Positions 39,875 to 61,707 of a stretch of DNA of 64,000 bases are shown here, one piece after another. This stretch comes from Bacteroidia bacterium (lineage in GTDB: Bacteria > Bacteroidota > Bacteroidia > NS11-12g > UBA955): the NCBI GenBank assembly GCA_023653095.1, contig JAMNXP010000004.1, positions 64,772 to 128,771 on the forward strand. Direction: 5' to 3'. Position 1 is the stretch's first letter. Every line of letters begins with the position of its first letter. The notes beneath the pieces were generated by a model, which was not told the origin of the DNA, searched no databases, and worked only from the letters and a program-made list of their open reading frames with translations. A program made the position numbers and the translations under genes.

Positions 39875-39908
39875 TTAAAAAAAGGAGGTGAAACAAGTTC
39901 ACCTCCTT
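39875..39908 (-). terminator. rho-independent terminator after susD-like gene
   Basis: The minus strand reads AAGGAGGTGAA-loop-TTCACCTCCTT followed by a T-run, about 30 nt after the SusD stop. Confidence 0.75.
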
Positions 39909-39936
39909 AACCAAACTTAACTATTCTAGAAAAACA

Positions 39937-41526
39937 TCATTTTAGAATCCACATTTCAGCGTTGATGTCGTCTTGACCACCAAACTGAGCGTCTACAGCC
40001 GCTTTCCAACTAGCTTGGTTGTTGGTTCTTTCACTAGCAGGATATTGATATCTCAAAGGAATTTTACCACTGTTACCAGTTCCAGGACCGTTTGTAGAAA
40101 AAGCAGGGAAGCCAGTTCTCCGATAGTTGAAATATCCTTCCAAGCCGCTGTTCTGGAAGAAAGATAAATACTTCTGAGTAATAATTTGTTGAAGGCCTAA
40201 ATTACCAGCACCTGCATACTTTACACTCATTTGATTGAAGTAAGCAGCTTCATCAAAATTATAAGTATTCTTGATATAGTCTGAAGAATTGGTTGGGGTT
40301 CCACCATTCCTGAAAGCGTAAACATCTAAAGGCCCATTTTTAATTCCATAGAACTCCATACTTGCTTTGATACCCTTAATGTACCAATCAGAAGCACTTT
40401 CGCTAATCCAACCTCTGTGTGCTGCTTCAGCGATATTAAAACACATTTCAGAATATCCTACTTGAATACAAGGTTCAGCTACAAAAGTGCGGTACCAACG
40501 GTAACGATTATACAATGAGTACTCACCATTCAAAAAGTCACCACCATTGCTCACCTGCATGCGGGTTGACATATCAGCCAAATCCTGATTAGCATCAGCA
40601 CCAACAAATGACTCAAAATCAGTATAACCTGAACCGGCTTTTAATTTAGCTCCCGAAGGCTCAGCTATGATGAAAGCTCTTGGATCTTTCAAATAAGCCA
40701 ATGCAGATAAATTAGTTGAAGACATGTTGTAACGCAATGCATCAAAACCATAATTATCCGGGCTCACTGGGTACTTGTTCAATGTGCTGTTATATAGAAA
40801 CTGCATATTATCAGCATTCGAAGTAAACACAGGGTACTTAGAAGGATTAGAAACAATAGCAGCAAATTTACCTTTAACATTCAAATCGGCATCAGACTCC
40901 TTGTTGCTCAACGACATCAAAACCCTTAAGGCAAATGTGTTATTCAACTTCTGCCAAGCCATCAAATTATTGTTGAAATAAATATCCCCATTAAAGGCCA
41001 TTTTCCCTTGGTTTGCTAATTCAGTCATGTCAGCGTTAGCTTCTTCCAACCAAACCAAAACTTGCTTGAATACCTCTTTCTGAGAATCGTATTTTGGCAA
41101 GAAGTTATCTGTTTTCAAAGCTTCAGACATTGGAACGTCTCCAGTCAACATGGTCATTTGATAGTATAAATAGGCTCTAAAAAACTTTCCCAAAGCAGAA
41201 TAAGGATTGACATCTGGATTTCCCACACGTTTAGCTTCCTCTTCCATTTTGATGACATTTTTTAAAGTAGTAAATGACCAACTTGCACCACCCCAATTGT
41301 ACTCATTATTTCCGTAGTAATTGTAGTTGCAAAGATTGTATTGACATATTCTAGCATCACCACCCCATGGGCGCTGATTGATAGAAAAGCATATTCCGTT
41401 CAACACCAAGTCAGGTGTTACTTGCGTTGGGCGATTAGGATCTTTATCCAATCCATCCACTGAACAACTGTTCATTGATACAACCAATGTAACTGCTGCT
41501 GCTATTGCAAAAATTATTTTTTTCAT
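39937..41526 (-). CDS. SusD/RagB family nutrient-binding outer-membrane lipoprotein
   Basis: Lipobox VVSMNSC. 529 aa, immediately downstream of a SusC-type gene, with TPR-like helical composition. Confidence 0.85.
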   Translation of the reverse strand: MKKIIFAIAAAVTLVVSMNSCSVDGLDKDPNRPTQVTPDLVLNGICFSINQRPWGGDARICQYNLCNYNYYGNNEYNWGGASWSFTTLKNVIKMEEEAKRVGNPDVNPYSALGKFFRAYLYYQMTMLTGDVPMSEALKTDNFLPKYDSQKEVFKQVLVWLEEANADMTELANQGKMAFNGDIYFNNNLMAWQKLNNTFALRVLMSLSNKESDADLNVKGKFAAIVSNPSKYPVFTSNADNMQFLYNSTLNKYPVSPDNYGFDALRYNMSSTNLSALAYLKDPRAFIIAEPSGAKLKAGSGYTDFESFVGADANQDLADMSTRMQVSNGGDFLNGEYSLYNRYRWYRTFVAEPCIQVGYSEMCFNIAEAAHRGWISESASDWYIKGIKASMEFYGIKNGPLDVYAFRNGGTPTNSSDYIKNTYNFDEAAYFNQMSVKYAGAGNLGLQQIITQKYLSFFQNSGLEGYFNYRRTGFPAFSTNGPGTGNSGKIPLRYQYPASERTNNQASWKAAVDAQFGGQDDINAEMWILK

Positions 41527-41544
41527 GATTAATTATAATATGAA

Positions 41545-44500: not shown

Positions 44501-44619
44501 CCAACATTTGCCGTGTCAGAATCTGTAGCTGTTACTTGAGCATAGACACTGTTCGATGCAACTGCCATGGCTACACACGAAATCAGTGTTTTGGTTTGTA
44601 ACAAATAATTTGGTTTCAT
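41545..44619 (-). CDS. SusC/RagA family TonB-linked outer-membrane protein
   Basis: VVVTALGIKKDKKKLGFAVSEI signature, plug domain, large barrel, and C-terminal YGVNINLTF. Start at ATG 44619. Confidence 0.9.
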   Translation of the reverse strand: MKPNYLLQTKTLISCVAMAVASNSVYAQVTATDSDTANVGEVVVTALGIKKDKKKLGFAVSEIKGASLVKARETNVLDNMVGKVAGLTIGQSAELLGTSQVVLRGSDIRRGQSVLYVVDGIPINSDAYNLSPDDIEKVSVLMGPAAAALYGYRGQNGAIVITTKKGTKGGISVDFNSSTMIENGFLTIPKVQDEYGPGDHGNYSFVDGLGGGTNDGDYDVWGPKLNGQLLAQYDSPIDPVTGQRTPTPFVARGKNNLQRFLQPGILNTNNFSIASSTDKVDIRFSFSNLNQQGIVPNTGLSSNTFNISNTVRFSDRFRMNATVNYNRQATDNINDVVYGPNSLIYNIVIWQGADWDVMSDDIRGIWQPGKEGVQSVHSEYKRYQNPWFVAYKWLRGHYKNDLYGYTSFDYDITKDLNLMVRSSATTYDVLRTEKMPFSAHPYGREENRGDYREDRRAMFEMNNEFLFNYTKKRRDLDIHASFGGNRRDFNYTSSWTTTDYLNVPEVYNFANSANPVRSFNFNSSMAVNSLYALADVGYKYIFVNLGARMDQLSTMPADNNSFIYPSASLSFLPTELFTNLKSKTLNFLKFRASFAQVKGGLTTPLVSQAGSTLGYGSNYSTPYDGPAYVNSGIYNTPLLYNGKPSANYTNVLPNASLAPFERVDFEFGTEARMFNNRLSVEATYYVYNDGPGIFSRTISEATGYTNQVVNGIETQRKGWEVSFKGDVIKARKQGSLAWNSMLNLSRYREFLTAVYGDVNQISANYFVSDNSSNRFLKVGDRIDALYTNGFARDKDGNLINDAGGRPIVLPKGQFQGYTLPDLVIGFYNQFTYKNFTVGLQFDGRIGGLVVNQIQRQTFRGGRHIETVQDNLTDANGNSMANAREADTRGEKTWLGEGVQVASGSIKYDPITGEITNYEELAFKNNETQTYLQDYISRYYGQFEANIMKKDYMKLRELTITYNIPSSMMGKTFKGASVSLVGRNLIYFAKGLHDLDLDQFPGMTGYSALQSPTMRRYGVNINLTF

Positions 44620-44799
44620 TTGGTTGAGTTTGTTTTTCAAATCAACCACCCCAATGTTACGATAAGCGACCTTAAATATTATCCAATAATAAACAACAAA
44701 AAATTAATATCGAACCCTATAATTTGAATTTATTAAATATAATTAATCATATATTTAATTATATATCAATATTTTAAGAATTTATATATAAAATTAAAA

Positions 44800-46869
44800 T
44801 TAAAATTGAATCATCAAATTAATACTCCTACCAGGCATCAAAACACCACTTCCATGTACCTTAACAATTTCATTACTTATATTTTGTACACCAGTAGCAA
44901 TTCGGACATTGTTAAGTAAAAATTCTAACCCAAAATCTAACTGAATAAAACCAGCCGTACCGTGTGTACCAATTCTATTGTCAGAGATATCTCCAGCTGC
45001 CAATCTTCTTTGAAAACTCGAAGCTAAATACCGAATAAAAATCCGGTTTTGTTGTTTTTTCCCGTAAAGGTAATTCATTTGAATCAACCCATTAATAGGT
45101 GGAATTCTTCGCATAGGCTCAACCTTTGTCAAATTGTCTCCTATGGCTTGCGAATAACCTGCTTTTATGTGCAAATTAGAACTAATGCTAATTTCCGTAT
45201 AACACTCAGCCCCTTGAATGATAGCCCTCTCAACGTTCTCTTTTTTATACACTTGATAGCCCTGAATTGAATCGGTTCCCACCTTTACCCGTGCAATTAC
45301 ATTGTATAGATAATTCTGATAAACTGAAAAATTGAACTTAATAAAATCAGAACTCCATTTTAATCCAATCTCGTGGTTGTTTGAATACTCAGGTTTCAAA
45401 TCAAATTGCGGAATTTCATACCTAAAATCAACAATGCCTAAGGTTCCCAAATCGTCAATATTAGGTGCCCTAAAACTTCCAGAGTAATTACCAAACAACC
45501 TCAATTTACTCAGCAAATTCGAGGAATTCCTTGAAATTGCCGATGATATACCTATTGTATGAACAAGAGCCCAATTACGATCTCTTATCAATCCAAGATC
45601 TTTTTCAGAAACTTCAGTTTGTGTTGATTGAAAGCGACTACCCAAAGTTATATCAACCCATTTAAAATCTCCTTTTGCCATCAAATAAACCCCTTGTTGC
45701 AACATCATTGAATTATCTGGGTATAAACCACGCTTCAATTCTTGAGCACCGGAAGAAACATTGGTTAAAATTCTTGACGAGCCCACCTTATCGTAGTATG
45801 CCTCATATCCTGAATTAATTAACCAGAATTTTCTAAATCGATGATTCAACTCCGTTAGAAAAAATCCGGTATTAACCTCGTCTTTTTCATTAGATGTTGT
45901 CAACGAAAGGTTTTTCCTTGCAGATCTTTCTTCCAAAGTATGTATAACACCCGTTGTGAACTTCAAATTAGTTCTATTACCCAATTCAAGGAACCTGCGA
46001 GCATAGGCCAAATTCCGAGCTTGAAGATCCATTTGGTTTACTTCGAAATTCTCTAAGGCCACTTTGTGATAAACAGGAACATTAAATTGTTGATTGCTTT
46101 GATAAGCAAACTCCCATTCTCCATTGGTGGCCTTTAAACGCAATTTTAAATCCCCGTTAAATTCCTCATACCCTGTGGGATTCTGACGACCCACATTTCC
46201 CCCACCAACAAGATCTCCAAAGTGCCTAAAAGTAATACCAGCGGTAACAGCAACTTTATTGCTTGCTGCGTCTAGGTATAGTCTTTGGGACCCTTCTATT
46301 GTTGGGGACATGAATCGTGTAATGCCGCCTACCTTAGTTACTTTAAATTTGCCAGGTTCAGAATTAGAGACCGAACTAGAGAATTCTGGCCTTCGATAAT
46401 AAACAACCAAAGCTCCACCTATAGCATCGCTCCCATATTGTACACTGCCTGTTCCCAGAGCAAGATCCACCTGTGAAATTGCAAAACCATCTAAGGTATT
46501 TAAATATTGATTAGGACCATATCTGAATGTACTGTTGTTCATTCGGATGCCATCCACAAGAGTAAGAATCTGATTTCCCGTTACACCTCTCAAATAAGGC
46601 GACCCACCTCCATGATTGGTTTTCTGAACTTGTATTCCCGGTATCTCGGCCAAAGATTCTGGCAAGGTCCTATGAAAAGTCCCTGTTACTGGTTTTTTTA
46701 AAGCATAACATGTAAATGACGACTTTTGCGCGCCTTCACCTGCTCTGAAAGCAACATGAACCGTATCAATTAACGAAGTCAGATCTTCAACATTATTAGC
46801 CGATTGCTGAGTTTGGGCCACCAATATCGAAGGCAGAAAAATAAATCCCAAGAAAAACCTAATGAACAT
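44800..46869 (-). CDS. TonB-dependent receptor
   Basis: Signal peptide, plug motifs (RGVTGNQILTLVDGIRMNN, GSDAIGGALVV) and C-terminal barrel ending in F. Confidence 0.85.
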   Translation of the reverse strand: MFIRFFLGFIFLPSILVAQTQQSANNVEDLTSLIDTVHVAFRAGEGAQKSSFTCYALKKPVTGTFHRTLPESLAEIPGIQVQKTNHGGGSPYLRGVTGNQILTLVDGIRMNNSTFRYGPNQYLNTLDGFAISQVDLALGTGSVQYGSDAIGGALVVYYRRPEFSSSVSNSEPGKFKVTKVGGITRFMSPTIEGSQRLYLDAASNKVAVTAGITFRHFGDLVGGGNVGRQNPTGYEEFNGDLKLRLKATNGEWEFAYQSNQQFNVPVYHKVALENFEVNQMDLQARNLAYARRFLELGNRTNLKFTTGVIHTLEERSARKNLSLTTSNEKDEVNTGFFLTELNHRFRKFWLINSGYEAYYDKVGSSRILTNVSSGAQELKRGLYPDNSMMLQQGVYLMAKGDFKWVDITLGSRFQSTQTEVSEKDLGLIRDRNWALVHTIGISSAISRNSSNLLSKLRLFGNYSGSFRAPNIDDLGTLGIVDFRYEIPQFDLKPEYSNNHEIGLKWSSDFIKFNFSVYQNYLYNVIARVKVGTDSIQGYQVYKKENVERAIIQGAECYTEISISSNLHIKAGYSQAIGDNLTKVEPMRRIPPINGLIQMNYLYGKKQQNRIFIRYLASSFQRRLAAGDISDNRIGTHGTAGFIQLDFGLEFLLNNVRIATGVQNISNEIVKVHGSGVLMPGRSINLMIQF

Positions 46870-46878
46870 CCGTTTAAA

Positions 46879-49329
46879 TTATTCTATAAATGCAGCTCTG
46901 CGTACCGCTGGAACTTCGCTTTTCTCTCCGCGAACGTATTTCCATAGTACCTCATTCATAATGAACTCATCTGCCTCATCTTCTCGGTCTAACTTCAAGA
47001 GATTGCTTCTATCCATCAGGTATGAAGTTGACTTTGGGTTGGTTTCTGAATTGAGTTCATTTAAGTTGATTCTAGCGGGTTCGGATTGAAATCCCCCGGA
47101 AATAAGAGTGTCAGAAAAACAACGCCACATAGAAACAGCTCCGGCATCGTATTGACTCATAGGCGGCATCCCCAAAATCAACTCCATCGTTCTTAACATA
47201 GACGAAGTAGTGTAATGTGTGTGATCTATGAACTTGCGTTTCACAAATCCTCCTGCGACATAAGCAGTAGAACGGTGGGCATCTACGTGATCAGGTCCAT
47301 TTTGAGCATCGTCTTCTAAAATAAATACCGCTGATTCATTCCAAATGGGTGATTTTGATAAATATTCAACGAATAGACCCACAGCTAAATCATTATCAGC
47401 CACATGCGCAAAAGGTGTAGGCCTACCCTTTCTTACACCTTCGGTATGATCATTGATGAATCGCAAAGTACTTAACTGAGGAACAGCATTAATGGCCAAC
47501 AAAGAATCAAAATCACGTTTCCACTGCCAAAATCTCAGACTGTCTTTGATCGATTCATCCCAAGAAGTAAAATACTTGCAAAAATGTCCTTCCAAAACGG
47601 GTATGTTTGGTTTGTAATCATCTGCAAATTCGCCATAAGTTCTATAGGAGATATTCGCTCTTTTAGCGTGATCCCAGATAAACCCTTTATGAGGGTGTGC
47701 AATTTTCCACTGTCCTTCGTAAACATATTCTCCGCCCTTACCACCATAACTCGTGGGCCAGGTTTTTTCGGTGTAGTCATTTGCAATGGCGCCAGTACTC
47801 CAATTGTGACCATCGGCACTTACCTCAGCATCTACATAAAAATTATCCAAAAGCACGAACTCGCGAGCAAGTTTATGTTGATTTGGAGTGATATCGTCCC
47901 CAAAAAGCAACAAACTTGTATCGCCATTTCCTCCTTCAATATCACTCAAAACTTGATCGTAGGTTCTATTCTCTTTTATGATATAAAATACATATTTGAT
48001 GGGTGATTGCTGCCCCAACACCGCTGGAATTGGATTTCCTTTAGGAATCAAGGAATCTGCATTTTCACGAGATTTCCGGTAAGGAATGTTCTCTATACAA
48101 AGGGTGGTACTTGAACGTAAATCTTCCGCCTCATCAATTTCATTTAAGGGTATAATTTGTAAACTGCCCCTGAAGAGTGAACCTATATACTGGACTGGCA
48201 AGGCCTTGATACCTCCTTGATAGGTTACCTGATTTCTTTTTGCTGTTGGATTTGGACCCTTGGGATTTGCAGCAGATGAAACCCCTTTTCCATTGGCAAC
48301 AAACAAACCAGCACCGGCTATATTCACTTGAGTTGGATACCAACCCGTTGGCAAAAAGCCTAAAATCTTAGTCTCAGACCGTTCCCTTACATCAAATACA
48401 GCCAGATTGTTGTTGTCTGCATTTGCTACATATAATCTCCCGTTATTCATACACAAACCATTGGGTGTTGAACCCGTAGGTGCATCGCGTTCAATGGCGG
48501 TATTCAAAATCTCAGAAACTCGACCTTCCTGACCATCATAAATATGCACACTATTATCATTACCACAAGCCACAAAAATCCGATCGGTCAATTGATCATA
48601 TATTAATTCATTGGGATTTGACCCAACTTTCACTCTTTTTGATATCTTCAATGTGGAGGGATTCACTAAAACCAAATTTTCAGATCCCCATTCTGTAAGT
48701 ACCAATTCAGAATTCTTGACAGAAATCGGTTTTCTTGAATCTCGAGGCTTCAACAAAATAGCATAACCCGCAGATTTTAATTTCGCACTAAGGAGTATTT
48801 TCTTAGATTTCAAATCAACGGCATAGATGGATGAATCTTCTTTGGTCACTGTGTACAAAACCTTTTCATCGGCACTTAAAACCATTCCAACAGGAGAAAT
48901 TCTTGTGGGCCAAGGTTTACCCAAAAAAAGAGTATCTATTCTTTCGAGTTTGCCGTTCGAAAATTCAAACTTTTCTATCCAATTATTATTACCGCCACTT
49001 ACAAACAAATGATTGCCCGCGTTATTAAAACACATTCCATAAAAGGTTTTATTTACAGGCATACTATCAACAACTTGGTGCGAAAGCGCATCTATAACCA
49101 TGATTGAATGATCACTTTGTCCGGCATTTTGCACTAAGATCCATTTCTGTGATGGATGCACCAACATCTTGAGCGGTAAATCTCCCACCCTCACTTGCTT
49201 TCCTATGGGCGACAAACTCCAACCGTTGGGTAGTTCTACTTTGGTTGGACGTAAATTCGTTTGACCCAAGAGCGATGACAACAACGACATCACAAACGTT
49301 AGGGCAAGGACTATTTTTGGATTTCTCAT
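46879..49329 (-). CDS. beta-propeller (YncE/YVTN-like) + phosphoesterase (PLC/AcpA family) fusion protein, paralog 1
   Basis: Signal peptide. N-terminal half has repeated propeller blades. C-terminal half begins YVFYIIKENRTYDQVL (phosphoesterase family signature) and carries DAHRS. Confidence 0.75.
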   Translation of the reverse strand: MRNPKIVLALTFVMSLLSSLLGQTNLRPTKVELPNGWSLSPIGKQVRVGDLPLKMLVHPSQKWILVQNAGQSDHSIMVIDALSHQVVDSMPVNKTFYGMCFNNAGNHLFVSGGNNNWIEKFEFSNGKLERIDTLFLGKPWPTRISPVGMVLSADEKVLYTVTKEDSSIYAVDLKSKKILLSAKLKSAGYAILLKPRDSRKPISVKNSELVLTEWGSENLVLVNPSTLKISKRVKVGSNPNELIYDQLTDRIFVACGNDNSVHIYDGQEGRVSEILNTAIERDAPTGSTPNGLCMNNGRLYVANADNNNLAVFDVRERSETKILGFLPTGWYPTQVNIAGAGLFVANGKGVSSAANPKGPNPTAKRNQVTYQGGIKALPVQYIGSLFRGSLQIIPLNEIDEAEDLRSSTTLCIENIPYRKSRENADSLIPKGNPIPAVLGQQSPIKYVFYIIKENRTYDQVLSDIEGGNGDTSLLLFGDDITPNQHKLAREFVLLDNFYVDAEVSADGHNWSTGAIANDYTEKTWPTSYGGKGGEYVYEGQWKIAHPHKGFIWDHAKRANISYRTYGEFADDYKPNIPVLEGHFCKYFTSWDESIKDSLRFWQWKRDFDSLLAINAVPQLSTLRFINDHTEGVRKGRPTPFAHVADNDLAVGLFVEYLSKSPIWNESAVFILEDDAQNGPDHVDAHRSTAYVAGGFVKRKFIDHTHYTTSSMLRTMELILGMPPMSQYDAGAVSMWRCFSDTLISGGFQSEPARINLNELNSETNPKSTSYLMDRSNLLKLDREDEADEFIMNEVLWKYVRGEKSEVPAVRRAAFIE

Positions 49330-49330
49330 T

Positions 49331-52141
49331 TTATTTTTGTATATTAATAAATCTTTCATCATCCATGGGTTCACTCATTTGAATTTCCCTCCAAGGTATG
49401 TTTCGGTTGTATTTTTTGATGGCTACATTTGGATCAAATATGCGGGTATCGCTCTTCTCCAAATGATAAGATGTAAAATCAGGTTTATCTGTAAAAAAGT
49501 CCCCCAATAAAGTAGAAGTTAGGTCAAACTGATTGACCGGATTGATACCCAAAAGGGTATACATGGTTTTCAATATAGACCCAAAGTTTGCATGAGTTTT
49601 TGATACATATCCTCTCTTTACATAAGGTCCTGCCATCATCAATATACTTCGATGTGCATCTATATGATCTACACCGCCCTGTGGGTCATCTTCAGTCACA
49701 ATGACCAACATATTTTTCCAATATGGAGTATTTGATAAAAACTGCAGCATCCTACCCAATGCCAAGTCATTGTCAGCAACATATGAATGCACAAATGGAT
49801 ATCCGTCTTGGGGCCTAGGACCTGTGGTATGATCATTGGGCAATTGAATGGTAATCACCTGCGGCATGGTGTCTTTTCCCGACAACCATTTCTCAGTAAA
49901 TTCCTCTTCAAATTGCTCTACCCTGAACTGATCAGGAATGTTCATATTGTAACCTGCATATTTTCTCGAAGTAGAAGGATAAATAGCCGAAGGCATGGGG
50001 TATGCAACAGGCATAGCCGTTCCATTCGCTGTGTCATACCACTCCTCTTGTACGTCAGTATACTCATTGGCTTCCCCGAAATTATATACCGATACATTAT
50101 GGCGCTTCAAAGCTTCCCAAAATCCACCTATCTCATTGTAATCTTCTGGATCCTGTGCACCAGTTGTTCTAGGGAAGATTCTTCCAGGTGCCGGAGAAAA
50201 TATCCTGTAAGAACCTGAATTCGCTGAATTGGTCTCAACATACTCATTGGGAATGGTGCCCATCATCCAATGGTGCCCATGAATTGAAGCGTCGCTGTCG
50301 CAATAAAAATTATCTGACAATGAAAAGGTAGTCGCAATTTTCTTGTGATTGGGAGTTATTCTCACTTTCTCAGCATTTAGTAAAGCCTTCAGCATCAAGG
50401 TATCTAAACCGTACTTCTTCAAAAGCAAATTGAATTCTTCCGCTTTGAGAGGATTATCACTCAATAAAGACAATTTTTCTAACACGTCTTTTCGAATTAC
50501 CTGCTCACAATCCACACCAAATCTGGCCAACGTAGAATCACCCTTAACTTGAGATAACTGACCAAAAACCTCATCAAAAGTTCTATTTTCCTTGGTTATG
50601 TAAACTACATGTGCAATGGGTGAATTTCCCTTTTTTAACCAATTAGCTGATTTAAGTTGATTACTATCTAATTCACTGGTTTTTTTAAACGTATTTCGGA
50701 GGCAAATCTCACTGCCTTCTTCCCATTGTGCTTGACTTGTTAGAGAAATTCTTTGCAACAAACCCAATTGTATGTCACCCACATAGGTTCCTTGTGCCGG
50801 AGCTTTGAATCCCATGCCACCATTAGGCCCTGCTCCATATCCCCTAGCAGAGGTCACCAATATTTGATTCTTAACTCCTAAATATTTCACTCTCGTAGCA
50901 CCCCAACCTGAAGGTAAAAAACCCAATACCTTTCTTGTATCAAGATTAATACAAGCCACTGCGTTGTATCCCAATAAAGCCACGAATAATTGTTTGTTTT
51001 TGCGATCTACATCTAATCCGTAGGGGAAGTATCCTCTAACACCATCCAAAACTGAACCCGTTTGGATCGATATATGTTCTATCACCTTACGCTTCTTGAG
51101 ATCAATCACGGCAATTTTATCGTTTTGAGTTAATGACACGTAAGCATAACCACCATAACATACCAAGGAACTAGGGTGAGACCCACCCACAATTTCAGCA
51201 TCTTCAACCATCTCCCCAATTCTATGACCGGTTTTGATTGTTTCAATCAAACTGTTTTTCTTGATATCTATCATAGAAACCGTCATCGATTCCATATTAT
51301 CTGCTGCACCGAGCCCCGGAATTTTACGGCCATTCACCCATACGCCAGTATCAGATTCTGAAGTATGAGCACCATAGGGCGGAAAATGCAAATAGGCACT
51401 ATCCTTGTTGGTTGGAGTCACCCCAGGAACAAGCGAATATTGATAGACCCCTACATTGGAAAACAACACGTATTTGCCATCTTCTGATATGGTCAACCCG
51501 AAAGGAATTCGGCCAGTTGGAAAGGACTTCAATAACTTTTTACTTTTCAATTTGATTCGATACACCGATTTCCAAGCTCTATCCAACACCCACAATTCAT
51601 TTCTTTTTGCATCAAGTGCTATATCGGTTATAAAAGCTTCTTTTGGTGTATCGGGATGAAAACTGCCAACATCAATAGAGTCAACTACTTTTTTCAATTC
51701 GCAATCAAAGAACCAAAGCATCCCTTTATCACCGCCTCCAATCACCGCCGTTTTATTGTCTGGTAAGAACTGAATTCCAATAAAGGTTGCATTTCTTACC
51801 ACATCCAAACCTGAACCATCAAACTCAGGGAAACGCTGAATATTCAAAGAATCTTTTGATAAATCTACTAAACTGATAGCGTTACTGTGAGCTATAATTG
51901 CCCAATGTTCATCTGCCGAAACGGCTAAACCGTAGGGAGCTCTTGTAATACTTTTACACTCTCCAGACGGAGAAACCCATCTACCTGATGGGAGTACTGA
52001 AATACCATTGGGATTTATCTCGCAATATTGATTCTTTCCGGGGACTTCAATACCATTTTGAGCCTCAATACCCTCATTGACCATAAAACAAGCCACCAAA
52101 AAACTAAAATTCCAAATCTTAAGAATCAGTCTAATTACCAT
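49331..52141 (-). CDS. beta-propeller + phosphoesterase fusion protein, paralog 2
   Basis: Same architecture as paralog 1 (VVYITKENRTFDEVF, VDHIDAHRS). Its stop lies 1 nt from the start of paralog 1. Confidence 0.75.
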   Translation of the reverse strand: MVIRLILKIWNFSFLVACFMVNEGIEAQNGIEVPGKNQYCEINPNGISVLPSGRWVSPSGECKSITRAPYGLAVSADEHWAIIAHSNAISLVDLSKDSLNIQRFPEFDGSGLDVVRNATFIGIQFLPDNKTAVIGGGDKGMLWFFDCELKKVVDSIDVGSFHPDTPKEAFITDIALDAKRNELWVLDRAWKSVYRIKLKSKKLLKSFPTGRIPFGLTISEDGKYVLFSNVGVYQYSLVPGVTPTNKDSAYLHFPPYGAHTSESDTGVWVNGRKIPGLGAADNMESMTVSMIDIKKNSLIETIKTGHRIGEMVEDAEIVGGSHPSSLVCYGGYAYVSLTQNDKIAVIDLKKRKVIEHISIQTGSVLDGVRGYFPYGLDVDRKNKQLFVALLGYNAVACINLDTRKVLGFLPSGWGATRVKYLGVKNQILVTSARGYGAGPNGGMGFKAPAQGTYVGDIQLGLLQRISLTSQAQWEEGSEICLRNTFKKTSELDSNQLKSANWLKKGNSPIAHVVYITKENRTFDEVFGQLSQVKGDSTLARFGVDCEQVIRKDVLEKLSLLSDNPLKAEEFNLLLKKYGLDTLMLKALLNAEKVRITPNHKKIATTFSLSDNFYCDSDASIHGHHWMMGTIPNEYVETNSANSGSYRIFSPAPGRIFPRTTGAQDPEDYNEIGGFWEALKRHNVSVYNFGEANEYTDVQEEWYDTANGTAMPVAYPMPSAIYPSTSRKYAGYNMNIPDQFRVEQFEEEFTEKWLSGKDTMPQVITIQLPNDHTTGPRPQDGYPFVHSYVADNDLALGRMLQFLSNTPYWKNMLVIVTEDDPQGGVDHIDAHRSILMMAGPYVKRGYVSKTHANFGSILKTMYTLLGINPVNQFDLTSTLLGDFFTDKPDFTSYHLEKSDTRIFDPNVAIKKYNRNIPWREIQMSEPMDDERFINIQK

Positions 52142-52287
52142 CTCTCAATAATCCGAATTGAATTAAAACTAGTTGTTTCGCTGATTATAAGTAATTGTTA
52201 GGTTAAATACCTGTAGTTAACATTCCACTAATAGAAAAAAGGTAAAATAACATATAGATTAAAGAAATAGTCCTATTTTCGCTCACT

Positions 52288-52962: not shown

Positions 52963-53207
52963 TCCTTGGTCCTTGGTCCTTGGTCCTTGGTCTTTGGTCG
53001 TTGGCTAACAGCTTTCAGCTGTCAGCGGGCAGCTATCAGCCGACAGCCGACAGCCGACAGCCGACAGCCGACAGCCGACAGCCGACAGCCGACAGCCGAC
53101 AGCCGACAGCCGACAGCCGACAGCCGACCACCGACCACCGACCACCGACCACCGACCACCGACCACCGACCACCGACCACCGAACACCGAACACCGATCA
53201 CCGGCTA
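52963..53207. repeat. composite heptanucleotide tandem-repeat element, locus B
   Basis: In order: TCCTTGG x4, then 2 variants, then CAGCNNN x4, then 12 perfect CCGACAG (53040-53123), 8 perfect CCGACCA (53124-53179), CCGAACA x2, CCGATCA and CCGGCTA. Phase is unbroken over 53009-53207. Spans stop to stop between convergent genes. Confidence 0.95.
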
Positions 53208-55167: not shown

Positions 55168-55620
55168 CTAACCGGGAAATAACTCTTGCAATTTTTTGTA
55201 TCGGTAATCAAAAATATTCTTAACCTTGGCATGCACAAACAAAGCTCCAGCAATGTCACCCAAGATACTTTTTCCGATATCGTAGTGCAGAATATCAGTC
55301 ATTTTTACCCCGCCCTCAACTTCCTCGAAGTGGTGTTCGTGGTGCCATATATTGTAGGGACCTTTGCGCTGCTCATCTACAAAAAACTGCCTATCTTTAA
55401 TGTGTGTGATCTCGGTACACCAATCCATCTGAATGCCCAAAAGCGGACTAATCTTGTAGGTAATAAACAAACCCTCATACATCTTCTCTGGCACTTTCGA
55501 AGTGATTTTGAAGGTCATATCTTCAGGGGTAATTTCGTTCAAGTTCTTAGGCGACGAAAAAAAGTCCCATGCCAAATCGAGGCTGATGGGCAGAATTTGT
55601 TCGGTATATATTCTTCTCAC
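55168..55620 (-). CDS. SRPBCC (START/polyketide-cyclase-like) ligand-binding family protein
   Basis: 150 aa. Typical N-terminal pattern (...PISLDLAWDFFSSPKNLNEITP). Lies 6 nt upstream of xrtF. Confidence 0.6.
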   Translation of the reverse strand: MRRIYTEQILPISLDLAWDFFSSPKNLNEITPEDMTFKITSKVPEKMYEGLFITYKISPLLGIQMDWCTEITHIKDRQFFVDEQRKGPYNIWHHEHHFEEVEGGVKMTDILHYDIGKSILGDIAGALFVHAKVKNIFDYRYKKLQELFPG

Positions 55621-55657
55621 GTTAAACTAACAAATGTTAGTGGGTTTGGTTTTTATT

Positions 55658-55950
55658 TCAGCCATCAGTAGTCAGCTGTCAGCACTCAGCACTCAGCGGT
55701 CGGCGGTCAGCTTTCAGCGATCAGCGGGCAGCGGTCAGCGGTCTGCGGTCAGCGATCAGCACTCAGCACTCAGCACTCAGCCGTCAGCCGTCAGCGGTCT
55801 GCGGTCAGCTTTCAGCGGTGGCTATGCCGAAAAGCTGCACCGAAGGTGCCAAGCAACGCAAAGGGCAAGTCCTAGCGAAGCGTGAGTCCCATAGTCACAG
55901 ACAAAGCCATCAGCCAAGGACCAAGGACCAAAGACTAAAAACTAAGGTCT
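55658..55950. repeat. composite heptanucleotide tandem-repeat element, locus C
   Basis: 23 in-phase TCAGCNN units (55658-55818), a core with GCACC-GAA-GGTGC (55837-55849) and GCGAAGC (55875-55881) hairpins, then AAGGACC-type units (55916-55950) running into the stop codon of the next gene. Confidence 0.95.
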
Positions 55951-56613
55951 CATGACCGACATCAGTTTCAACTGCTCTCTAGCGATGTCGTTCCAGCGGT
56001 GCTCATCTGGGGTGGCGTGCCACCATAAATCGATCATATGTCCCTCGTAAAAAACGATGTATCTGCGCCCTGTGATGACGGTTTTCTTGACGAGTTTGAG
56101 CATTTCATTGTTGTAGATTTCACATTTGACGGTGTAACTCAACGCGGGCCGACCCCAAAGACTGTCGCATTCCAAAAAGCCAAGTTCTACATTTTTATAG
56201 GCATTCTGGAGGGCCGCCATGTGCTTGGCTTGACTGTCAGCGCCAAACTTGAAAACAATATTGGAAATAGTGTCGTTCTTGATATCTTTCAGGAACTGCG
56301 CATGAGTGGCATCACTCCAGGTGCGAGGAACGGGAAAGTAAATGCGCATTTCGAAGTGTGTTGCTTGCGCATCAAAATCATTGACGCCTTTGCTTTTGTG
56401 CTTGAAGAAAAACCCACGCGGATTCACCTGATTGACTGTTTGGATGTGCGGATGCACCGATTTCATCTGCAACAGGGGAGCTGGAGTTTCAACTTGCGCT
56501 TTACTCTTGCTTGGGGATTCTTCTGCAGGTGGCAATTTCCCGTACTGTGCCCATGCTAAATTAGTCAACATAAAAAAAGCCGCCAAGAATCTCAGAGATT
56601 TCATTGGCGGCAA
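55942..56613 (-). CDS. secreted hypothetical protein
   Basis: Signal peptide MKSLRFLAAFFMLTNLAWAQ. No recognised domain. Confidence 0.55.
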   Translation of the reverse strand: MPPMKSLRFLAAFFMLTNLAWAQYGKLPPAEESPSKSKAQVETPAPLLQMKSVHPHIQTVNQVNPRGFFFKHKSKGVNDFDAQATHFEMRIYFPVPRTWSDATHAQFLKDIKNDTISNIVFKFGADSQAKHMAALQNAYKNVELGFLECDSLWGRPALSYTVKCEIYNNEMLKLVKKTVITGRRYIVFYEGHMIDLWWHATPDEHRWNDIAREQLKLMSVMRP

Positions 56614-56629
56614 AGATAATGTACTACTA

Positions 56630-56783
56630 TCAGCTTTCAGCGGACAGCCGTCAGCGGTCAGCCTTCAGCGGTCAGCTTTCAGCGGTCAGTCGTCAGCGAT
56701 CAGCCGTCAGCCGTCAGCCATCAGCTGAAAGCTGATAGCCCTCTAAACTCTTAACTCTAAACTCTTAACTCTCCCCTCTACTC
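56630..56783. repeat. composite heptanucleotide tandem-repeat element, locus D
   Basis: 14 in-phase TCAGCNN units (56630-56727), a 7-bp-stem hairpin ATCAGCT-GAA-AGCTGAT (56720-56736), then six TCTNNNC units (56742-56783: TCTAAAC TCTTAAC TCTAAAC TCTTAAC TCTCCCC TCTACTC). Confidence 0.95.
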
Positions 56784-57137
56784 CCCCCTGGTCAGACTCA
56801 CATATCCATGCCTCGTCCACTGACTCATGATCTCGCACTCTGCCGGCGTGAGGCTCAGCGTTTCAGTTAGTTCACCAGTAATTCCGTTAGCGAAGATGGT
56901 GCCAATGGTATCAATCTCCCATCGAAGCATGAGCCGGTCCCAATGAAGACTTCCTTCGCACACCAACACCCCCGATGGGCGATAAAAATGTGCAATGATA
57001 ACCTCCTCACCTCCGCCCTCTCCGCCATTATTTCGGTCCTTTGGCGGACGCGTCCCTCCACCACCTCTGTCTTTTTCGGGGGATGTTTTTTCGGGGGATG
57101 TTTTGACGGCGATTGTTTCTAAGGTGGACATTGGCAT
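56778..57137 (-). CDS. orphan hypothetical protein, GC-rich relative to surroundings
   Basis: 119-aa ORF with a low-complexity Gly/charged N-terminus, including a 15-nt perfect tandem duplication (57075-57104, KTSPE x2). Coding status unproven. Confidence 0.4.
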   Translation of the reverse strand: MPMSTLETIAVKTSPEKTSPEKDRGGGGTRPPKDRNNGGEGGGEEVIIAHFYRPSGVLVCEGSLHWDRLMLRWEIDTIGTIFANGITGELTETLSLTPAECEIMSQWTRHGYVSLTRGE

Positions 57138-57198
57138 CCAAAATTACAATGGAAAACTTCAAATCATATAATGTTTATTTTCAATTATTTAAACTTCG

Positions 57199-57254
57199 AT
57201 TTTACATGTTTAGAATATTTCACTTTACATATTTGGAGTTTTCTACTTTACAAT
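57199..57254. repeat. three phased copies of a CTTTACA-type motif (23-nt period)
   Basis: TTTACA cores at 57201, 57224 and 57247 (ATTTTACATG, CACTTTACAT, TACTTTACAA), in the AT-rich spacer between the orphan ORF start and the endonuclease stop. Confidence 0.6.
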
Positions 57255-57294
57255 TTTTTAGAGAGTCTTATTGGTACATTTTGATTGATGATAA

Positions 57295-58371
57295 TTACAT
57301 AAATCTTATTTGAAGATTCAATTTGAAATAAAAATTCCCGTTTTCCTGATAGATTTTTCCAAAGTTGTATCTTGAAGTACTGGGTGTTTCAAGACGGGAA
57401 TTATTAAATAGGTAATTTTCAAACTCATTTTTGTGGTAAATATGATAACAAAGAACGTCACCTGTTTCTTTTACAACTAAATAACCGCCGTTTGCCTGAT
57501 AGTTGCCGTCCCACACCTTACTTGGGGTCATTCCCAACGCGACATCAGTTAAAAACTTCTTCATTTTATACGCATAGAATGAATGAGAATACCTGTTGTC
57601 GTATCCCAATGGATTACTAATGGCTATTTTCTCACAGATCTCTACAAGGTTCTTGTTATTGTATTTATATCCAAATATCAATAATTCCGCAATGATGTCG
57701 GGCAACCTACTATCAATCAAAATTAAATTATTTTCAAAAATTGGCTCTTCAATTCTGACAAATTCTAGGTAACCACCAACTTGATAAATTTGATTAACTC
57801 GATCAACAACTTTTGATTTCGTTTCGATAAAATTTATATCAAATAAATTATTCAGATCTTGAATATTATGACAAACTTTAAAAATAAAATTAGTTCCATT
57901 TCCTGCATTCAACAATGTAGATTCACTACCTAATTTTGATTTTATACTAAATCCAAGATCAACATTTGACGATACATGTTGATCATAGACAACAATTCGT
58001 ATATCAGTCTTTGAGGTAGATTTTGCTTTCAGCGAATTACAATAAATTGAATCTAAAAATGATTGGATTTCGGGCAATATAAAGGCCCCATTTTCCTTCT
58101 TTATTGCGGCAAGCAATTTTCCAGCTTGTTCTGAAAATACGGCTACATTTATTTTTAATGGTGCTTTTTCATTTCCAGAAATCAAAACAATCTCTCCATC
58201 TATTTCATACTCAAAATTTCCACCACTCTCCTCCCTAATAATCTTAATAATTGGATAAAAAATTTCTTCTACTCTATTTAAATTACCATCACCCAATAAC
58301 AATTCACCATCACCCAATAACTTTAAAAGTGTATAAATTTCACTCCATTCACCTTTGTTTCCCTTTAGCAT
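57295..58371 (-). CDS. HpaII family type II restriction endonuclease
   Basis: 358 aa. The N-terminus MLKGNKGEWSEIYTLLKLLGDGEL matches the characteristic start of the HpaII REase family. ATG overlaps the methyltransferase stop (ATGCTAA). Confidence 0.75.
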   Translation of the reverse strand: MLKGNKGEWSEIYTLLKLLGDGELLLGDGNLNRVEEIFYPIIKIIREESGGNFEYEIDGEIVLISGNEKAPLKINVAVFSEQAGKLLAAIKKENGAFILPEIQSFLDSIYCNSLKAKSTSKTDIRIVVYDQHVSSNVDLGFSIKSKLGSESTLLNAGNGTNFIFKVCHNIQDLNNLFDINFIETKSKVVDRVNQIYQVGGYLEFVRIEEPIFENNLILIDSRLPDIIAELLIFGYKYNNKNLVEICEKIAISNPLGYDNRYSHSFYAYKMKKFLTDVALGMTPSKVWDGNYQANGGYLVVKETGDVLCYHIYHKNEFENYLFNNSRLETPSTSRYNFGKIYQENGNFYFKLNLQIRFM

Positions 58372-59672
58372 AATTCTAACTTTCTTAAAATTTCAAAAGC
58401 CGTTGCTCGAATTGCTGGAACTGCGACAGAATTACCAAATTGTTTATACGCACTTGCATCAGAAACAGGTATAATAAAATTATCAGGAAAACCTTGAAGT
58501 CTAGCCCATTCACGAGGAGTCATTTTTCTGATACCTAATTTATTTACTTCTCCTTTGATTTTTGTTGTTGGAGTAAAGTCAGTAATTCGATCATCTACAA
58601 CCAAATTCCTTTCTCTTCCCATTCCGCCGCATACAACAGCATTCGCCACCTCCAGATCACCTATAATCTGATATCCAAATCCATTTCCTTTCTCCTCATG
58701 CCGCTTCTTATGATTTTCTAATGTCCATAAATATTGCGTTGACAAGTAATACCTAGTATCAACTGGCTTCGATTCCCTTATATCTATAAAGCTCAACCGA
58801 TCTGAATATGGTTCTGGGTAACGAAAAAATTCATCCTTAATATAATTCTTGTGAAAAGCAACGATATAAATTCTTTCTCTGTTTTGAGGAACTCCATAAT
58901 CCCTAGCATTTATTATTTGAGGATCGGGAACATAATAATTCAAATCCTCTCTGAGTACATTCAAAATAGTCGCCAAGGTCTTACCCTTATCATGATTTCT
59001 TAATCCCTTGACATTTTCCAGAAAAACTGCTTTGGGTCTTTTTCTTCTAATGATTTCAGCAACATCAAAAAATAAAGTCCCTCTAGTATCTTCGAACCCT
59101 CCTCTTCGCCCAGCAATAGAAAATGCTTGACAGGGAAAACCTGCACATAAAACATCAAAATCATCAGGAATTTCTGATTTATTTGCTTCATCGGTTATAT
59201 CACCAAATGGAATATCTCCGAAATTATTGAAATAGGTTTTTTGAGCGTCAGTATCCCATTCACTTGAATATACACAATCTCCGCCCAATGATTGAAGTGC
59301 CAACCTAAAACCACCAATTCCGGCAAATAAATCAATAAATCTGAATTTAGGTTGTAAATCTTTTTGAAAAGGTAAATTTCGCAAAACGCATTGTAATTCA
59401 AAATAAAAATCCACTATGTTTAACTGAGGTTTAATTTGAGATAAAAGAATAATATCATTTTGAATGTCTCTACTTAGTTGTTCAAAAGATAAATTAATTT
59501 TCCTTCCGATAACATGAGTTATCCTCGCCAATTTCTGATTGATTACTTCTTTATCATTTGCAAATATTTTATTAGTCTTATTCGAAAACAAATCGTTTGC
59601 AGTCAACAGAATATTGCAACCATTTTCATATTCCACTAATTTGTCCCGAACAACATGCTTCTTTTGACCCAT
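58365..59672 (-). CDS. DNA (cytosine-5)-methyltransferase with roughly 100-aa N-terminal extension
   Basis: Motif I FRFIDLFAGIGGF, IV GFPCQAFS, VI ENVKGL, VIII QNRERIYIV, X QFGNSVAVP. ATG at 59672; an alternative TTG at 59705. Confidence 0.95.
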   Translation of the reverse strand: MGQKKHVVRDKLVEYENGCNILLTANDLFSNKTNKIFANDKEVINQKLARITHVIGRKINLSFEQLSRDIQNDIILLSQIKPQLNIVDFYFELQCVLRNLPFQKDLQPKFRFIDLFAGIGGFRLALQSLGGDCVYSSEWDTDAQKTYFNNFGDIPFGDITDEANKSEIPDDFDVLCAGFPCQAFSIAGRRGGFEDTRGTLFFDVAEIIRRKRPKAVFLENVKGLRNHDKGKTLATILNVLREDLNYYVPDPQIINARDYGVPQNRERIYIVAFHKNYIKDEFFRYPEPYSDRLSFIDIRESKPVDTRYYLSTQYLWTLENHKKRHEEKGNGFGYQIIGDLEVANAVVCGGMGRERNLVVDDRITDFTPTTKIKGEVNKLGIRKMTPREWARLQGFPDNFIIPVSDASAYKQFGNSVAVPAIRATAFEILRKLELC

Positions 59673-59795
59673 ATAATTTTCTATTACAAATACTTGATTG
59701 TTCAAAAATAAGAGGTCATTTCTTTAAAACTATGGTAAACAAACATAAATAAATCCATTTGTTTTGCACTTTATACAACTACATCACCAACTAGC

Positions 59796-60794
59796 ATGTC
59801 ACTCTCTTACCTGCAGCTCAGAGAATACCTCGAAAGGCAAATGAAGATGAGCCACATCTATCAGCCAGTAATGATAAGAAGGTTGCTGTTAGATGGGGGT
59901 GTTTCGGAGGACAAATCTATTGCCGCTGACCTCTCTGCAAAAGATCCTAGCCAAATTGACTATTACACAGAGCGCGTCAATAACATGGTGGGGAAAGTTC
60001 TACGAAAAAATGGAGTTGTAACTAAAGAGAAAAATCTATACCTACTTGAAAAAGTTACCGAATTATCATCCCAAGAAATCAATGAATTGGTAGAACTTTG
60101 CGATAACAAGATCAATCAATACCTAGAAAAGCGAAACCTCGACATTTGGGAGCATCGCAACCGCACCCGCAGACCCATTTCTGGAGATGTTATTCATCAG
60201 GTATTGGAACGCGCAAAAGGCCGATGCGAACTTTGTGGCATCAAAAAGGAAATTAAACACTTGGAAGTTGATCATATTGTTCCCAAAAGTTTGGGTGGCG
60301 TTGACTCCATCCACAATTACCAAGCACTTTGTTACAGCTGCAACTCCCGAAAAGGCAACCGCTACTCCACTGACTACCGCACACTTGGTCAAATCTTCGA
60401 AGAACGACAACATTATTGTTTATTCTGTGGGACATCAAACGCCGAATTTTCCTCCCGCATTATACATTCTAACCATCTTGCTGTTTGTATTGAAGATGCT
60501 TTTCCGGTTACCGACGGACATAGCCTTATTATCCCTAAAAGGCATTTTGCCAACTACTACAATATAGAATCGGCCGAACTCAGCGCCACACATGAACTAA
60601 TAAAGTTGAGACAAAAAGAACTCATTAAAAAAGACTCAAGCATCACAGGTTTCAACATGGGTATAAACCAAGGAATTGACGCAGGACAAACCATTTTTCA
60701 TTGTCACATTCACCTCATTCCACGCCGCCAAAACGACGTTCCAGCACCCCGCGGAGGCGTCAGAAATATCATTCCAAATAAAGGAAACTATTGA
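59796..60794 (+). CDS. three-part fusion: helical (winged-helix-like) N-domain + HNH nuclease + HIT-family hydrolase
   Basis: HNH/zinc motif CELCG...EVDHIVPKSLGG...NYQALCYSCNSRKGN. HIT domain LIIPKRH...GFNMGINQGIDAGQTIFHCHIHLIPR. N-terminal 125 aa unassigned (SHIYQPVMIRRLLLDGG). Confidence 0.85.
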   Translation: MSLSYLQLREYLERQMKMSHIYQPVMIRRLLLDGGVSEDKSIAADLSAKDPSQIDYYTERVNNMVGKVLRKNGVVTKEKNLYLLEKVTELSSQEINELVELCDNKINQYLEKRNLDIWEHRNRTRRPISGDVIHQVLERAKGRCELCGIKKEIKHLEVDHIVPKSLGGVDSIHNYQALCYSCNSRKGNRYSTDYRTLGQIFEERQHYCLFCGTSNAEFSSRIIHSNHLAVCIEDAFPVTDGHSLIIPKRHFANYYNIESAELSATHELIKLRQKELIKKDSSITGFNMGINQGIDAGQTIFHCHIHLIPRRQNDVPAPRGGVRNIIPNKGNY

Positions 60795-60835
60795 AAATAC
60801 ACATCTATTTAATATACAATCATTTAACTAGGTCG

Positions 60836-60893
60836 TTTGTAACAAAGCGAACCCAATTTCTTCCATTTTTTGTAACAAAGCGAACCCAATTTC
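60836..60893. repeat. 25-bp perfect direct repeat, two copies, 33-bp period
   Basis: TTTGTAACAAAGCGAACCCAATTTC at 60836-60860 and 60869-60893, separated by 8 nt. Each copy contains the palindrome TTGTAACAA. Confidence 0.9.
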
Positions 60894-60996
60894 GGTGATC
60901 GGTGATCATTCGTCAGTGGTCAGCTCTAAACTCTGAATTCTAAACTCGCTGCTCTCCCCTCCCATCCAAAGACCAAGGACTAAAACCCTAAAACCT
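60894..60996. repeat. composite heptanucleotide tandem-repeat element, locus E (short)
   Basis: CGGTGAT x2, then CGTCAGTGGTCAGC, six TCTNNNC units (60925-60966: TCTAAAC TCTGAAT TCTAAAC TCGCTGC TCTCCCC TCCCATC), then AAAGACC AAGGACT AAAACCC TAAAACC running into the stop and C-terminus of the next gene. Confidence 0.9.
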
Positions 60997-61570
60997 CATA
61001 AGCCACTTCGTTGCGCCTATTGACCACATCCCAAGGCGCATTGTAACCCATGTAAAGAAGGGAACCCTTGGTGAAAATGTTGTTTTCTTGGAGCACACGT
61101 TTGAGTTCTTGGGCGTATTTGGAGATTTTTTCTTCGGAAGTGAATCCCCCGAAACGCAAAACTGCCAAGGTCATGGGGTTTTGAGCCACCAACGATACCG
61201 CGCTAGAATTGGGCGCTGGAAGATCTGACATTTGATATTGACTGGGCATGACGAACGACATTGACGCGTCAGAGTCAGAGATATTCATAATAACGGGAGA
61301 GGTCATGGCAATCTTTTGTTGCTGTTGGTTTCCGCCGAAAATGTAGCCCGCTACCGTGCTAAATCCGTTGTTACCATTCGAATCATAACGCTTTCCACCG
61401 AGTTTGGTTTGGGCCAAAATCAAGTTGGGATACTGCCTAATTTCTACCTCCCCTAGGGTTTTAACAATTTGATATTTAGGCGTTTCGATGTCTTTAAATT
61501 TAAAAGAGTAAAACAACAAAACGGCTCCCACAATCACGATGGGCACGGCAATCCAAACGACGATTTTCAT
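60980..61570 (-). CDS. SOUL heme-binding family protein with N-terminal membrane anchor
   Basis: After the TM helix: ETPKYQIVKTLGEVEIRQYP...FSTVAGYIFGGN...MTSPV...GYNAPW, the SOUL/HBP pattern. Start at ATG 61570; the longer ORF overlaps the tRNA. Confidence 0.75.
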   Translation of the reverse strand: MKIVVWIAVPIVIVGAVLLFYSFKFKDIETPKYQIVKTLGEVEIRQYPNLILAQTKLGGKRYDSNGNNGFSTVAGYIFGGNQQQQKIAMTSPVIMNISDSDASMSFVMPSQYQMSDLPAPNSSAVSLVAQNPMTLAVLRFGGFTSEEKISKYAQELKRVLQENNIFTKGSLLYMGYNAPWDVVNRRNEVAYEVLGF

Positions 61571-61607
61571 TGATAATGAAACAATTAAAGTCGAGAAAGG
61601 TTCAAAT

Positions 61608-61630: not shown

Positions 61631-61634
61631 ATAG

Positions 61635-61707
61635 TGGTATCGGGCGGAATCGAACCGTCGACACAAGGATTTTCAGTCCTTTGCTCTACCAACTGAGCTA
61701 CGATACC
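61635..61707 (-). tRNA. tRNA-Phe (anticodon GAA)
   Basis: Reverse complement: GGTATCGTAGCTCAGTTGGTAGAGCAAAGGACTGAAAATCCTTGTGTCGACGGTTCGATTCCGCCCGATACCA. Perfect 7-bp acceptor stem, D-loop AGTTGGTA, anticodon loop CTGAAAA, T-loop TTCGATT. One A-C mismatch in the T stem. CCA not encoded. Confidence 0.95.

Follow-up and report, generated by a model that had tools for sequence, protein, structure and literature searches.

An HpaII-family restriction–modification cassette as a probable allele of an exchangeable slot beside an HNH-HIT gene in a Bacteroidia genome

Which of the genes that stand side by side in an AT-rich defence locus belong to one system? This question is raised by positions 57138 to 60794 of a 64,000-nucleotide stretch of DNA from the Bacteroidia bacterium assembly GCA_023653095.1 (contig JAMNXP010000004.1, positions 64,772 to 128,771), hereafter the window (C6:64772-128771 in our numbering). 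The window belongs to a metagenome-assembled genome (MAG; G000) of 2.04 Mb in 14 contigs that is about 75% complete. A C5 cytosine methyltransferase gene (methylase) and an HpaII-family endonuclease gene are found there next to a third gene, whose product joins a winged-helix-like N-terminal domain, an HNH nuclease and a HIT hydrolase (HNH-HIT). We consider it highly probable that the first two genes form a functional type IIP restriction–modification (R-M) system, present as one allele of a swappable slot, and that HNH-HIT is independent of them. The genes in question are the following.

57295–58371, minus strand: HpaII-family type IIP restriction endonuclease, 358 amino acids (aa) (PF09561, PADLOC, homologues, dN/dS)
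58365–58371, minus strand: ATGCTAA, in which the methylase stop overlaps the endonuclease start (sequence reading)
58365–59672, minus strand: C5 cytosine DNA methyltransferase, 435 aa from its probable start (PF00145, TIGR00675, motifs, starts of relatives)
59796–60794, plus strand: winged-helix-like N-domain, HNH nuclease and HIT hydrolase, 332 aa (PF01844, PF01230)

We examined the R-M pair for its domain content and integrity. Residues 5-357 of the endonuclease align with positions 1-359 of PF09561 (RE_HpaII) at 9e-132 (440 bits; cut-off 25), and the PADLOC model REase_II matches it at 9.6e-106. In the HpaII system of Haemophilus parainfluenzae and its Bacteroidota relatives (FpsJI and the Algibacter system, see below), the endonuclease belongs to this Pfam family and has the same length (358 aa). 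We found 6716 homologues, nearly always 357-358 aa long among the 120 matches listed, and an alignment of 24 homologues has 131 invariant columns, all of which are kept in the window protein. The ratio of nonsynonymous to synonymous substitutions (dN/dS), computed against the related locus L233 (a Logan contig of 4265 bp), is 0.086 for the endonuclease and 0.085 for the methylase, so that both genes are under strong purifying selection. The methylase open reading frame (ORF) matches PF00145 (1.6e-98; 330 bits) and TIGR00675, its best solved relative is M.HhaI (3e-75), and its translation contains the expected series of motifs: FAGIGGF (I, FxGxG), GFPCQAFS (IV, PCQ), FLENVKG (VI, ENV), PQNRERIY (VIII, QxRxR) and FGNSVAVP (X, GNSV). 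It is the only C5 methylase of the assembly, a count that is provisional given the completeness of the MAG, and no Dam-type methylase was found in the same assembly.

Decay of such systems is known in the genus: in the genome G004, the HpaII-family endonuclease is a fragment interrupted by a TAA (G004:C44:16-870, L003) and there is no C5 methylase anywhere, which looks like a decayed R-M system. The window cassette could similarly represent a decaying or orphan remnant whose endonuclease is inactive and which is retained merely as a methylase. The length of the endonuclease, the full coverage of the model, the conserved invariant columns and the low dN/dS all speak against such a history, and we regard it as very unlikely.

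The organization of the pair follows that of its family. We collected 80 HpaII-family loci from species-representative genomes, mostly Bacteroidota, of which 75 had an intact endonuclease and sufficient upstream DNA to be judged. A C5 methylase lies directly upstream on the same strand in 74 of these 75, as it does in the HpaII system, in FpsJI of Flavobacterium psychrophilum and in the Algibacter system. An overlap of stop and start is the rule in the 74 loci, usually of 4 or 17 nt and also of 7. In the window, the TAA of the methylase occupies 58365-58367 and the ATG of the endonuclease 58369-58371, which yields an overlap of 7 nt; the methyltransferase would thus be translated first and the endonuclease translationally coupled to it. 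A reading of the window made from its letters alone (the sequence-only reading) had described an HpaII-family type II cassette with this overlap and the order methylase then endonuclease, and the profile matches and the survey agree with it on both counts.

The specificity of the pair can be approached through its Bacteroidota relatives. FpsJI is HpaII-like and listed as CCGG, its methylase protects from HpaII, and deletion of its endonuclease removes a transfer barrier in F. psychrophilum (PMC11837570). The HpaII-type methylase of Algibacter modifies the second C of CCGG (PMC8099122). Experiments have thus established CCGG as the target of FpsJI and of the Algibacter methylase. By analogy with these relatives, the product of the window methyltransferase is most likely C5mCGG, and the endonuclease is most likely directed against unmethylated CCGG of incoming DNA; the CCGG-like specificity proposed earlier therefore stands as the likely target. 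Judged by its genes, the pair is an ordinary, intact system of probable CCGG type, another case of a known type. It differs from the HpaII, FpsJI and Algibacter systems in the N-terminal extension of its methylase and in having no adjacent or fused Vsr.

This extension offers another view of the modified base. The longest methylase ORF encodes 446 aa (58365-59705, minus strand), opens at TTG 59705 and reaches the Pfam methylase domain at residue 121. Since P0121 (89% identical) and L233 both begin at ATG 59672, this codon is probably the true start; the protein then counts 435 aa, of which about 110 precede motif I, close to the extension of roughly 100 aa that had been noticed initially. M.MspI also has a long N-terminal extension. 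The window methylase might accordingly be of the M.MspI/M.BsuFI type and modify the outer cytosine (5mCCGG), which would likewise block an HpaII-type endonuclease, its extension of about 110 aa then being of the M.MspI type. However, methylases paired with HpaII-family endonucleases are typically 420-430 aa long, of which 85-90 aa precede the aligned core (74 loci), and their extensions are weakly homologous (33% identity over 89 aa; E 8e-8); short methylases of about 353-365 aa without the extension were found in 2 of the 74 loci. The extension also sits between the Vsr and methylase domains of fused homologues, and the Algibacter relative targets the second C, not the first. Because the extension is typical of the methylases in these loci, we regard it as a family trait, and the comparison with M.MspI made in the sequence-only reading is not supported; outer-cytosine methylation appears improbable to us.

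We then compared the locus with two Logan contigs, L233 and the metagenomic contig L019 (4564 bp). Three further features are needed for this comparison.

57155–59773, minus strand: swappable AT-rich cassette, the R-M pair with intergenic DNA (junction alignments)
59673–59795, no strand: divergent intergenic region between methylase and HNH-HIT, of which only the last 21-22 nt are common to L019
56778–57137, minus strand: ORF119, an orphan with no known domain that is present in both island alleles (comparison of L233 and L019)

L233 is colinear with positions 56691-60904 of the window at 88.8% identity and carries ORF119, the endonuclease, the methylase and HNH-HIT. L019 encodes an HNH-HIT protein that is 98% identical to that of the window (96.6% at the DNA level), and upstream of it, joined by overlapping stop and start codons, a NUDIX protein and a PLD-helicase-DUF3427 protein of 943 aa that has the architecture of SauUSI. 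The junction alignment with L019 places the right breakpoint at 59774-59775, 21-22 nt before the ATG of HNH-HIT, and the left breakpoint at about 57150-57165, just outside the start of ORF119. Because these breakpoints flank it sharply, the AT-rich R-M block is exactly the segment that was exchanged, and because L019 holds NUDIX and SauUSI-like genes at this place, the R-M cassette is one allele of a swappable slot. The other allele, NUDIX with a SauUSI-like and presumably 5-methylcytosine (5mC)-dependent nuclease, occupies the slot between ORF119 and HNH-HIT in a closely related lineage, and the conserved flanks presumably allowed the alleles to be exchanged by homologous recombination.

The composition of the locus was compared with that of same-size windows across the genome (mean GC-content 39.7%, standard deviation 3.0%). 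The block 57138-59773 has a GC-content of 31.6% (z = -2.65), which falls in the lowest 1% of genome windows, and its GC-content at third codon positions is 0.23-0.27, relative to 0.42-0.52 in neighbouring genes. The R-M cassette is foreign in composition, and the AT-richness that had been judged by eye is borne out by these profiles. HNH-HIT and ORF119 present GC-contents of 42% and 53%, respectively; since neither value agrees with the other or with that of the block, the island has a mosaic composition. ORF119 had no match in Pfam, NCBIfam or PADLOC, is 88% identical in L233 (dN/dS 0.31), and its 5' end is also found at the left end of L019. The synonymous divergence (dS) from L233 is uneven along the island, with 0.31 for the endonuclease and 0.62 for both the methylase and HNH-HIT, and HNH-HIT differs from its L019 copy by a dS of 0.12. 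These values suggest repeated recombination inside the island.

The two alleles may be functionally opposed. SauUSI is a type IV enzyme (PLD-helicase-DUF3427) that cuts DNA containing 5mC or 5-hydroxymethylcytosine, and proteins of the same architecture fill the same slot beside HNH-HIT in L019, G005 and G024. Since SauUSI cuts M.HpaII-modified DNA (PMC3141236), the two slot alleles would be expected to be incompatible in one cell; by analogy, we hypothesize that an HpaII-type methylase and a SauUSI-like enzyme exclude each other. No DUF3427 protein was found in the window's assembly. An anticorrelation of the two gene types was not seen in the genus, for which we compared 25 species, one genome each: DUF3427 proteins occur in 11 of the 25 and C5 methylases in 5, and both are found in 3 (about 2.2 by chance). 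The contig G004:C132 encodes a 964-aa DUF3427 (SauUSI-like) protein.

We next consider whether HNH-HIT serves the R-M pair. The gene divergently adjoins the methylase gene at a distance of 123 nt, and the arrangement is retained in L233 at an identity of 88.8%. Vsr (PF03852) had no match anywhere in the 2.04-Mb assembly, a provisional result at about 75% completeness, whereas control genomes were matched; the lack of a vsr gene reported from the letters is therefore confirmed at this scale. In view of this lack, HNH-HIT had been put forward as a candidate functional substitute for Vsr. It could be a partner of the R-M system, either as a Vsr-like T:G mismatch nickase that offsets the deamination of 5mC or as an additional subunit for restriction or repair. 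Repair of this kind evidently is of use to the family: many of the closest homologues of the methylase in the protein database are 550-565-aa fusions of Vsr, extension and methylase. Indeed, in polypeptides such as P0122, P0126, P0127, P0136, P0145, P0164 and others, and in L260, L274 and L280, Vsr is followed by an extension of about 95 aa and a C5 methylase core about 76% identical to that of the window. In P0122 (Chryseobacterium indologenes, 559 aa) and similar fusions, whose cores are 76-78% identical to the window methylase, the segment between Vsr and core is the same extension. Unlike them, the window methylase lacks a Vsr domain, and the assembly encodes none either near it or at any other place.

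The distribution of Vsr and of HNH-HIT argues against such a partnership. Vsr is missing within 6 kb in 65 of the 74 HpaII-type loci, which cope without an adjacent copy; a separate vsr gene occurs in 6 loci and a fusion to the N-terminus of the methylase in 3. Since most loci have none nearby, a missing Vsr is the norm for this family and not, as first thought, unusual, even though the family appears to recruit Vsr repeatedly. Within the same 6 kb, neither an HNH-HIT nor a SauUSI-like gene was found at any of the other HpaII-type loci (0 of 74). Conversely, a C5 methylase lies within 10 kb in just 6 of 79 HNH-HIT loci and is adjacent in 2, and one Robiginitalea locus presents HNH-HIT beside a C5 methylase, a genuine Vsr and an MvaI/BcnI-type endonuclease. 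HNH-HIT showed no similarity to the Vsr model, and only the HNH and HIT models matched it. Moreover, its 98% identical copy in L019 shares an operon with a SauUSI-like enzyme, and the characterised SauUSI destroys 5mC DNA (PMC3141236). The idea of a Vsr substitute thus finds no support, and we give any partnership of HNH-HIT with the R-M pair very little credence. To judge from these neighbourhoods, HNH-HIT is a separate gene, neither part of the R-M mechanism nor a replacement of Vsr.

The HNH-HIT protein itself belongs to a large and uniform family, with 5506 database proteins at E ≤ 1e-10. Its layout comprises an N-domain of 130 aa without Pfam match, an HNH domain at residues 144-189 (PF01844, 3e-13) and a HIT domain at residues 217-312 (PF01230, 5e-18). 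Among the 120 matches listed, the homologues are about 311-340 aa long and 50-68% identical to the window protein, except for the 98% identical copy P0001. Across 49 homologues, the HNH residues C144, C147, D159, H160, N174/N183, C179 and C182 are invariant (CxxC..DH..N..CxxC); in the HIT triad HCHIHLIP (HxHxH), H302 and H306 are invariant and H304 is found in at least 90%. The dN/dS of 0.06-0.08 indicates strong purifying selection. A Foldseek search with the whole model returned matches to Hint and Fhit (E about 1e-7), and these HIT matches swamped the rest. We therefore modelled the N-domain separately with AlphaFold2 (predicted local distance difference test, pLDDT, 86), and the model is winged-helix-like with a long C-terminal helix. 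Its fold matches are generic winged-helix proteins only, and weak (E 0.14-1), and searching PDB and Pfam with an N-domain profile gave no significant sequence match.

We surveyed the neighbourhoods of 79 HNH-HIT loci, which are spread over Bacteroidota, Beta- and Gammaproteobacteria and further phyla. The loci were collected from genome contigs by alignment queries; single-sequence queries gave nearly only HIT-only proteins or one locus. The commonest neighbour is a SauUSI-like protein (19 loci, directly downstream in 11), followed by GIY-YIG/Schlafen-helicase/S24 proteins (10 loci), NUDIX (9-10), MazG-like proteins (8), helix-turn-helix regulators (6), HNH_2 nucleases (6), the C5 methylases mentioned above and Vsr (1). 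Other loci of the genus and order (L013 4082-7529 in G024, and L015 6300-8071 in G036) stand beside two large proteins that are DUF262/GmrSD-like by their motifs and beside a module, also read from motifs, of an E1-like (ThiF-type) protein and a small zinc protein; these genes would represent further defence-island company of HNH-HIT. A tRNA or tmRNA gene lies within 10 kb in about 24 of 60 loci, mildly above a rough, uncomputed estimate of chance, and several loci are found 0.1-1.3 kb from a tRNA (tRNA-Leu, Met, Ser, Arg/Pro, Phe).

Set amid modification-dependent and nucleotide-hydrolysing genes, HNH-HIT may be a stand-alone defence-type nuclease. Among modification-dependent type IV enzymes, fusions of a winged helix with HNH are known (PMC11037411). 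HNH-HIT resembles them in the order of a winged-helix-like N-domain and HNH and in being mostly stand-alone in defence contexts, and differs from them in carrying a HIT domain at its C-terminus. Neither in sequence nor in fold did the N-domain significantly match any solved protein or the DpnI-type winged-helix domains of 6mA-dependent type IV endonucleases. It is possible, although we hold this view only tentatively, that HNH-HIT is a new stand-alone restriction enzyme and the constant member of a two-part defence locus, whose slot alternates between a 5mC-writing R-M system and a 5mC-reading SauUSI-like enzyme with NUDIX. A new DNA-reading N-domain would then aim the HNH nuclease, and the HIT domain would perform a nucleotide-linked step, on adenylated DNA ends, ligase-AMP or modified-nucleotide pools. 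Such a step would explain the recurrent company of NUDIX and MazG-like proteins.

Returning to the reading of an R-M allele next to an independent HNH-HIT gene, the flanks define how the island is placed in the chromosome.

56630–56778, no strand: left copy of an interspersed repeat element (repeat search, families D1 and D2)
60836–60893, no strand: two perfect 25-nt direct repeats TTTGTAACAAAGCGAACCCAATTTC, 3' of HNH-HIT (repeat family D3)
60894–60961, no strand: right copy of the element, a direct repeat of the left one (repeat search, family D2)
60980–61570, minus strand: SOUL haem-binding family gene, flank only (PF04832, 4e-48)
61634–61707, minus strand: tRNA-Phe(GAA), with its 3' end towards the variable region (ARAGORN)

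The repeat element consists of an array of TCAGCNN heptamers and, after it, CTCTAAACTCT..CTCTCCCCTC, and its two copies correspond closely, 60924-60961 being 84% identical to 56741-56778 (family D2). L233 ends in these repeats on both sides and L019 also ends in them. The cassette lies inside an island of about 4.2 kb (ORF119, endonuclease, methylase and HNH-HIT) between direct copies of a host interspersed element. The element is found genome-wide in intergenic regions of many contigs, as TCAGCNN-type heptamer arrays with AAGGACC- or CTCTAAACTC-type units, and in the window at 52963-53207, 55634-55950, 56630-56778 and 60894-60961; the assemblies of L019 and L233 and the homology to G013 all break at such elements. 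The 25-nt repeats include the palindrome TTGTAACAA, and three similar copies were read in L019 at about 4412-4510. A scan for sigma-70 promoters and terminators yielded fewer matches than shuffled sequence and was uninformative, its model being ill-suited to Bacteroidota.

The tRNA-Phe gene lies 840 nt from the stop of HNH-HIT, as anticipated (about 0.85 kb to the right). The hallmarks of a tRNA-targeting integrative island were not found: the island ORFs include no integrase, and no direct repeat of the tRNA 3' end is present at the far border, the borders being copies of the host heptamer element.

The same region was compared across the genus, in which the nearest species to the window's genome are G013 (the closest, with DNA about 93% identical) and G005. 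The HpaII-family endonuclease was found in 3 of the 25 species, one copy being the fragment with a stop codon. In G005, tRNA-Phe abuts the left-flank gene (window 55942-56613) and positions 56623-61603 are missing entirely, leaving an empty site. In G013, homology ends at 56697 inside a heptamer repeat and other cargo follows: katG (797 aa) and a hicA/hicB-like pair replace the island at the same slot (L041 10435-13517, G013:C10). In G010, about 760 nt separate a SOUL gene from the gene at 55168-55620; the SOUL gene has the same locus there as in the window and is located elsewhere in G005. Because G005, G013 and G010 differ there, the DNA 3' of tRNA-Phe is a variable region, in which the island lies. 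The block is thus not carried at this place by these three relatives, where the site is empty (G005) or holds other cargo (G013 and G010), and its designation as the accessory island of the window is correct as to its accessory nature. It is not the only such island: a 16-kb block (36209-52270) is also absent from G013 and G005, where 36208 joins 52271 directly. This block encodes a HAD hydrolase, DUF5690, an FAD oxidoreductase, an HD protein, a SusC/SusD pair, a TonB receptor and two large phosphoesterase-family proteins, and looks like a phosphorus-scavenging utilisation locus.

Several points weigh against our reading of the locus. The assignment of CCGG and of the inner cytosine comes from relatives only, through the pairing with an HpaII-family endonuclease and through the Algibacter methylase. 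CCGG is the most depleted of the 256 tetranucleotides in the window's genome (observed/expected ratio 0.68), and we rejected this depletion as evidence for the cassette: the ratio is the same in G013 and 0.84 in G005. Since G013 lacks the cassette and is equally depleted, the depletion reflects the history of the lineage and not the cassette. We infer the route of mobility indirectly, because neither an integrase nor a tRNA-derived repeat is present. Finally, the adjacency of the R-M pair and HNH-HIT persisted over a dS of about 0.6 (L233), and a functional link between them is possible.

The R-M pair itself is nothing new: it would represent one more case, from a freshwater lineage of Bacteroidota that is uncultured, of a probable barrier to gene transfer acting at CCGG. 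The interest of the locus lies in the precisely mapped cassette swap and in the HNH-HIT family. The former is a base-pair-resolved replacement at one defence slot, where a methylating R-M system alternates with a SauUSI-like enzyme. As for the latter, we found no tested function for this three-domain family, which has over 5000 entries in the database, from Bacteroidota and several classes of Proteobacteria, is strongly conserved and keeps the company of defence genes.

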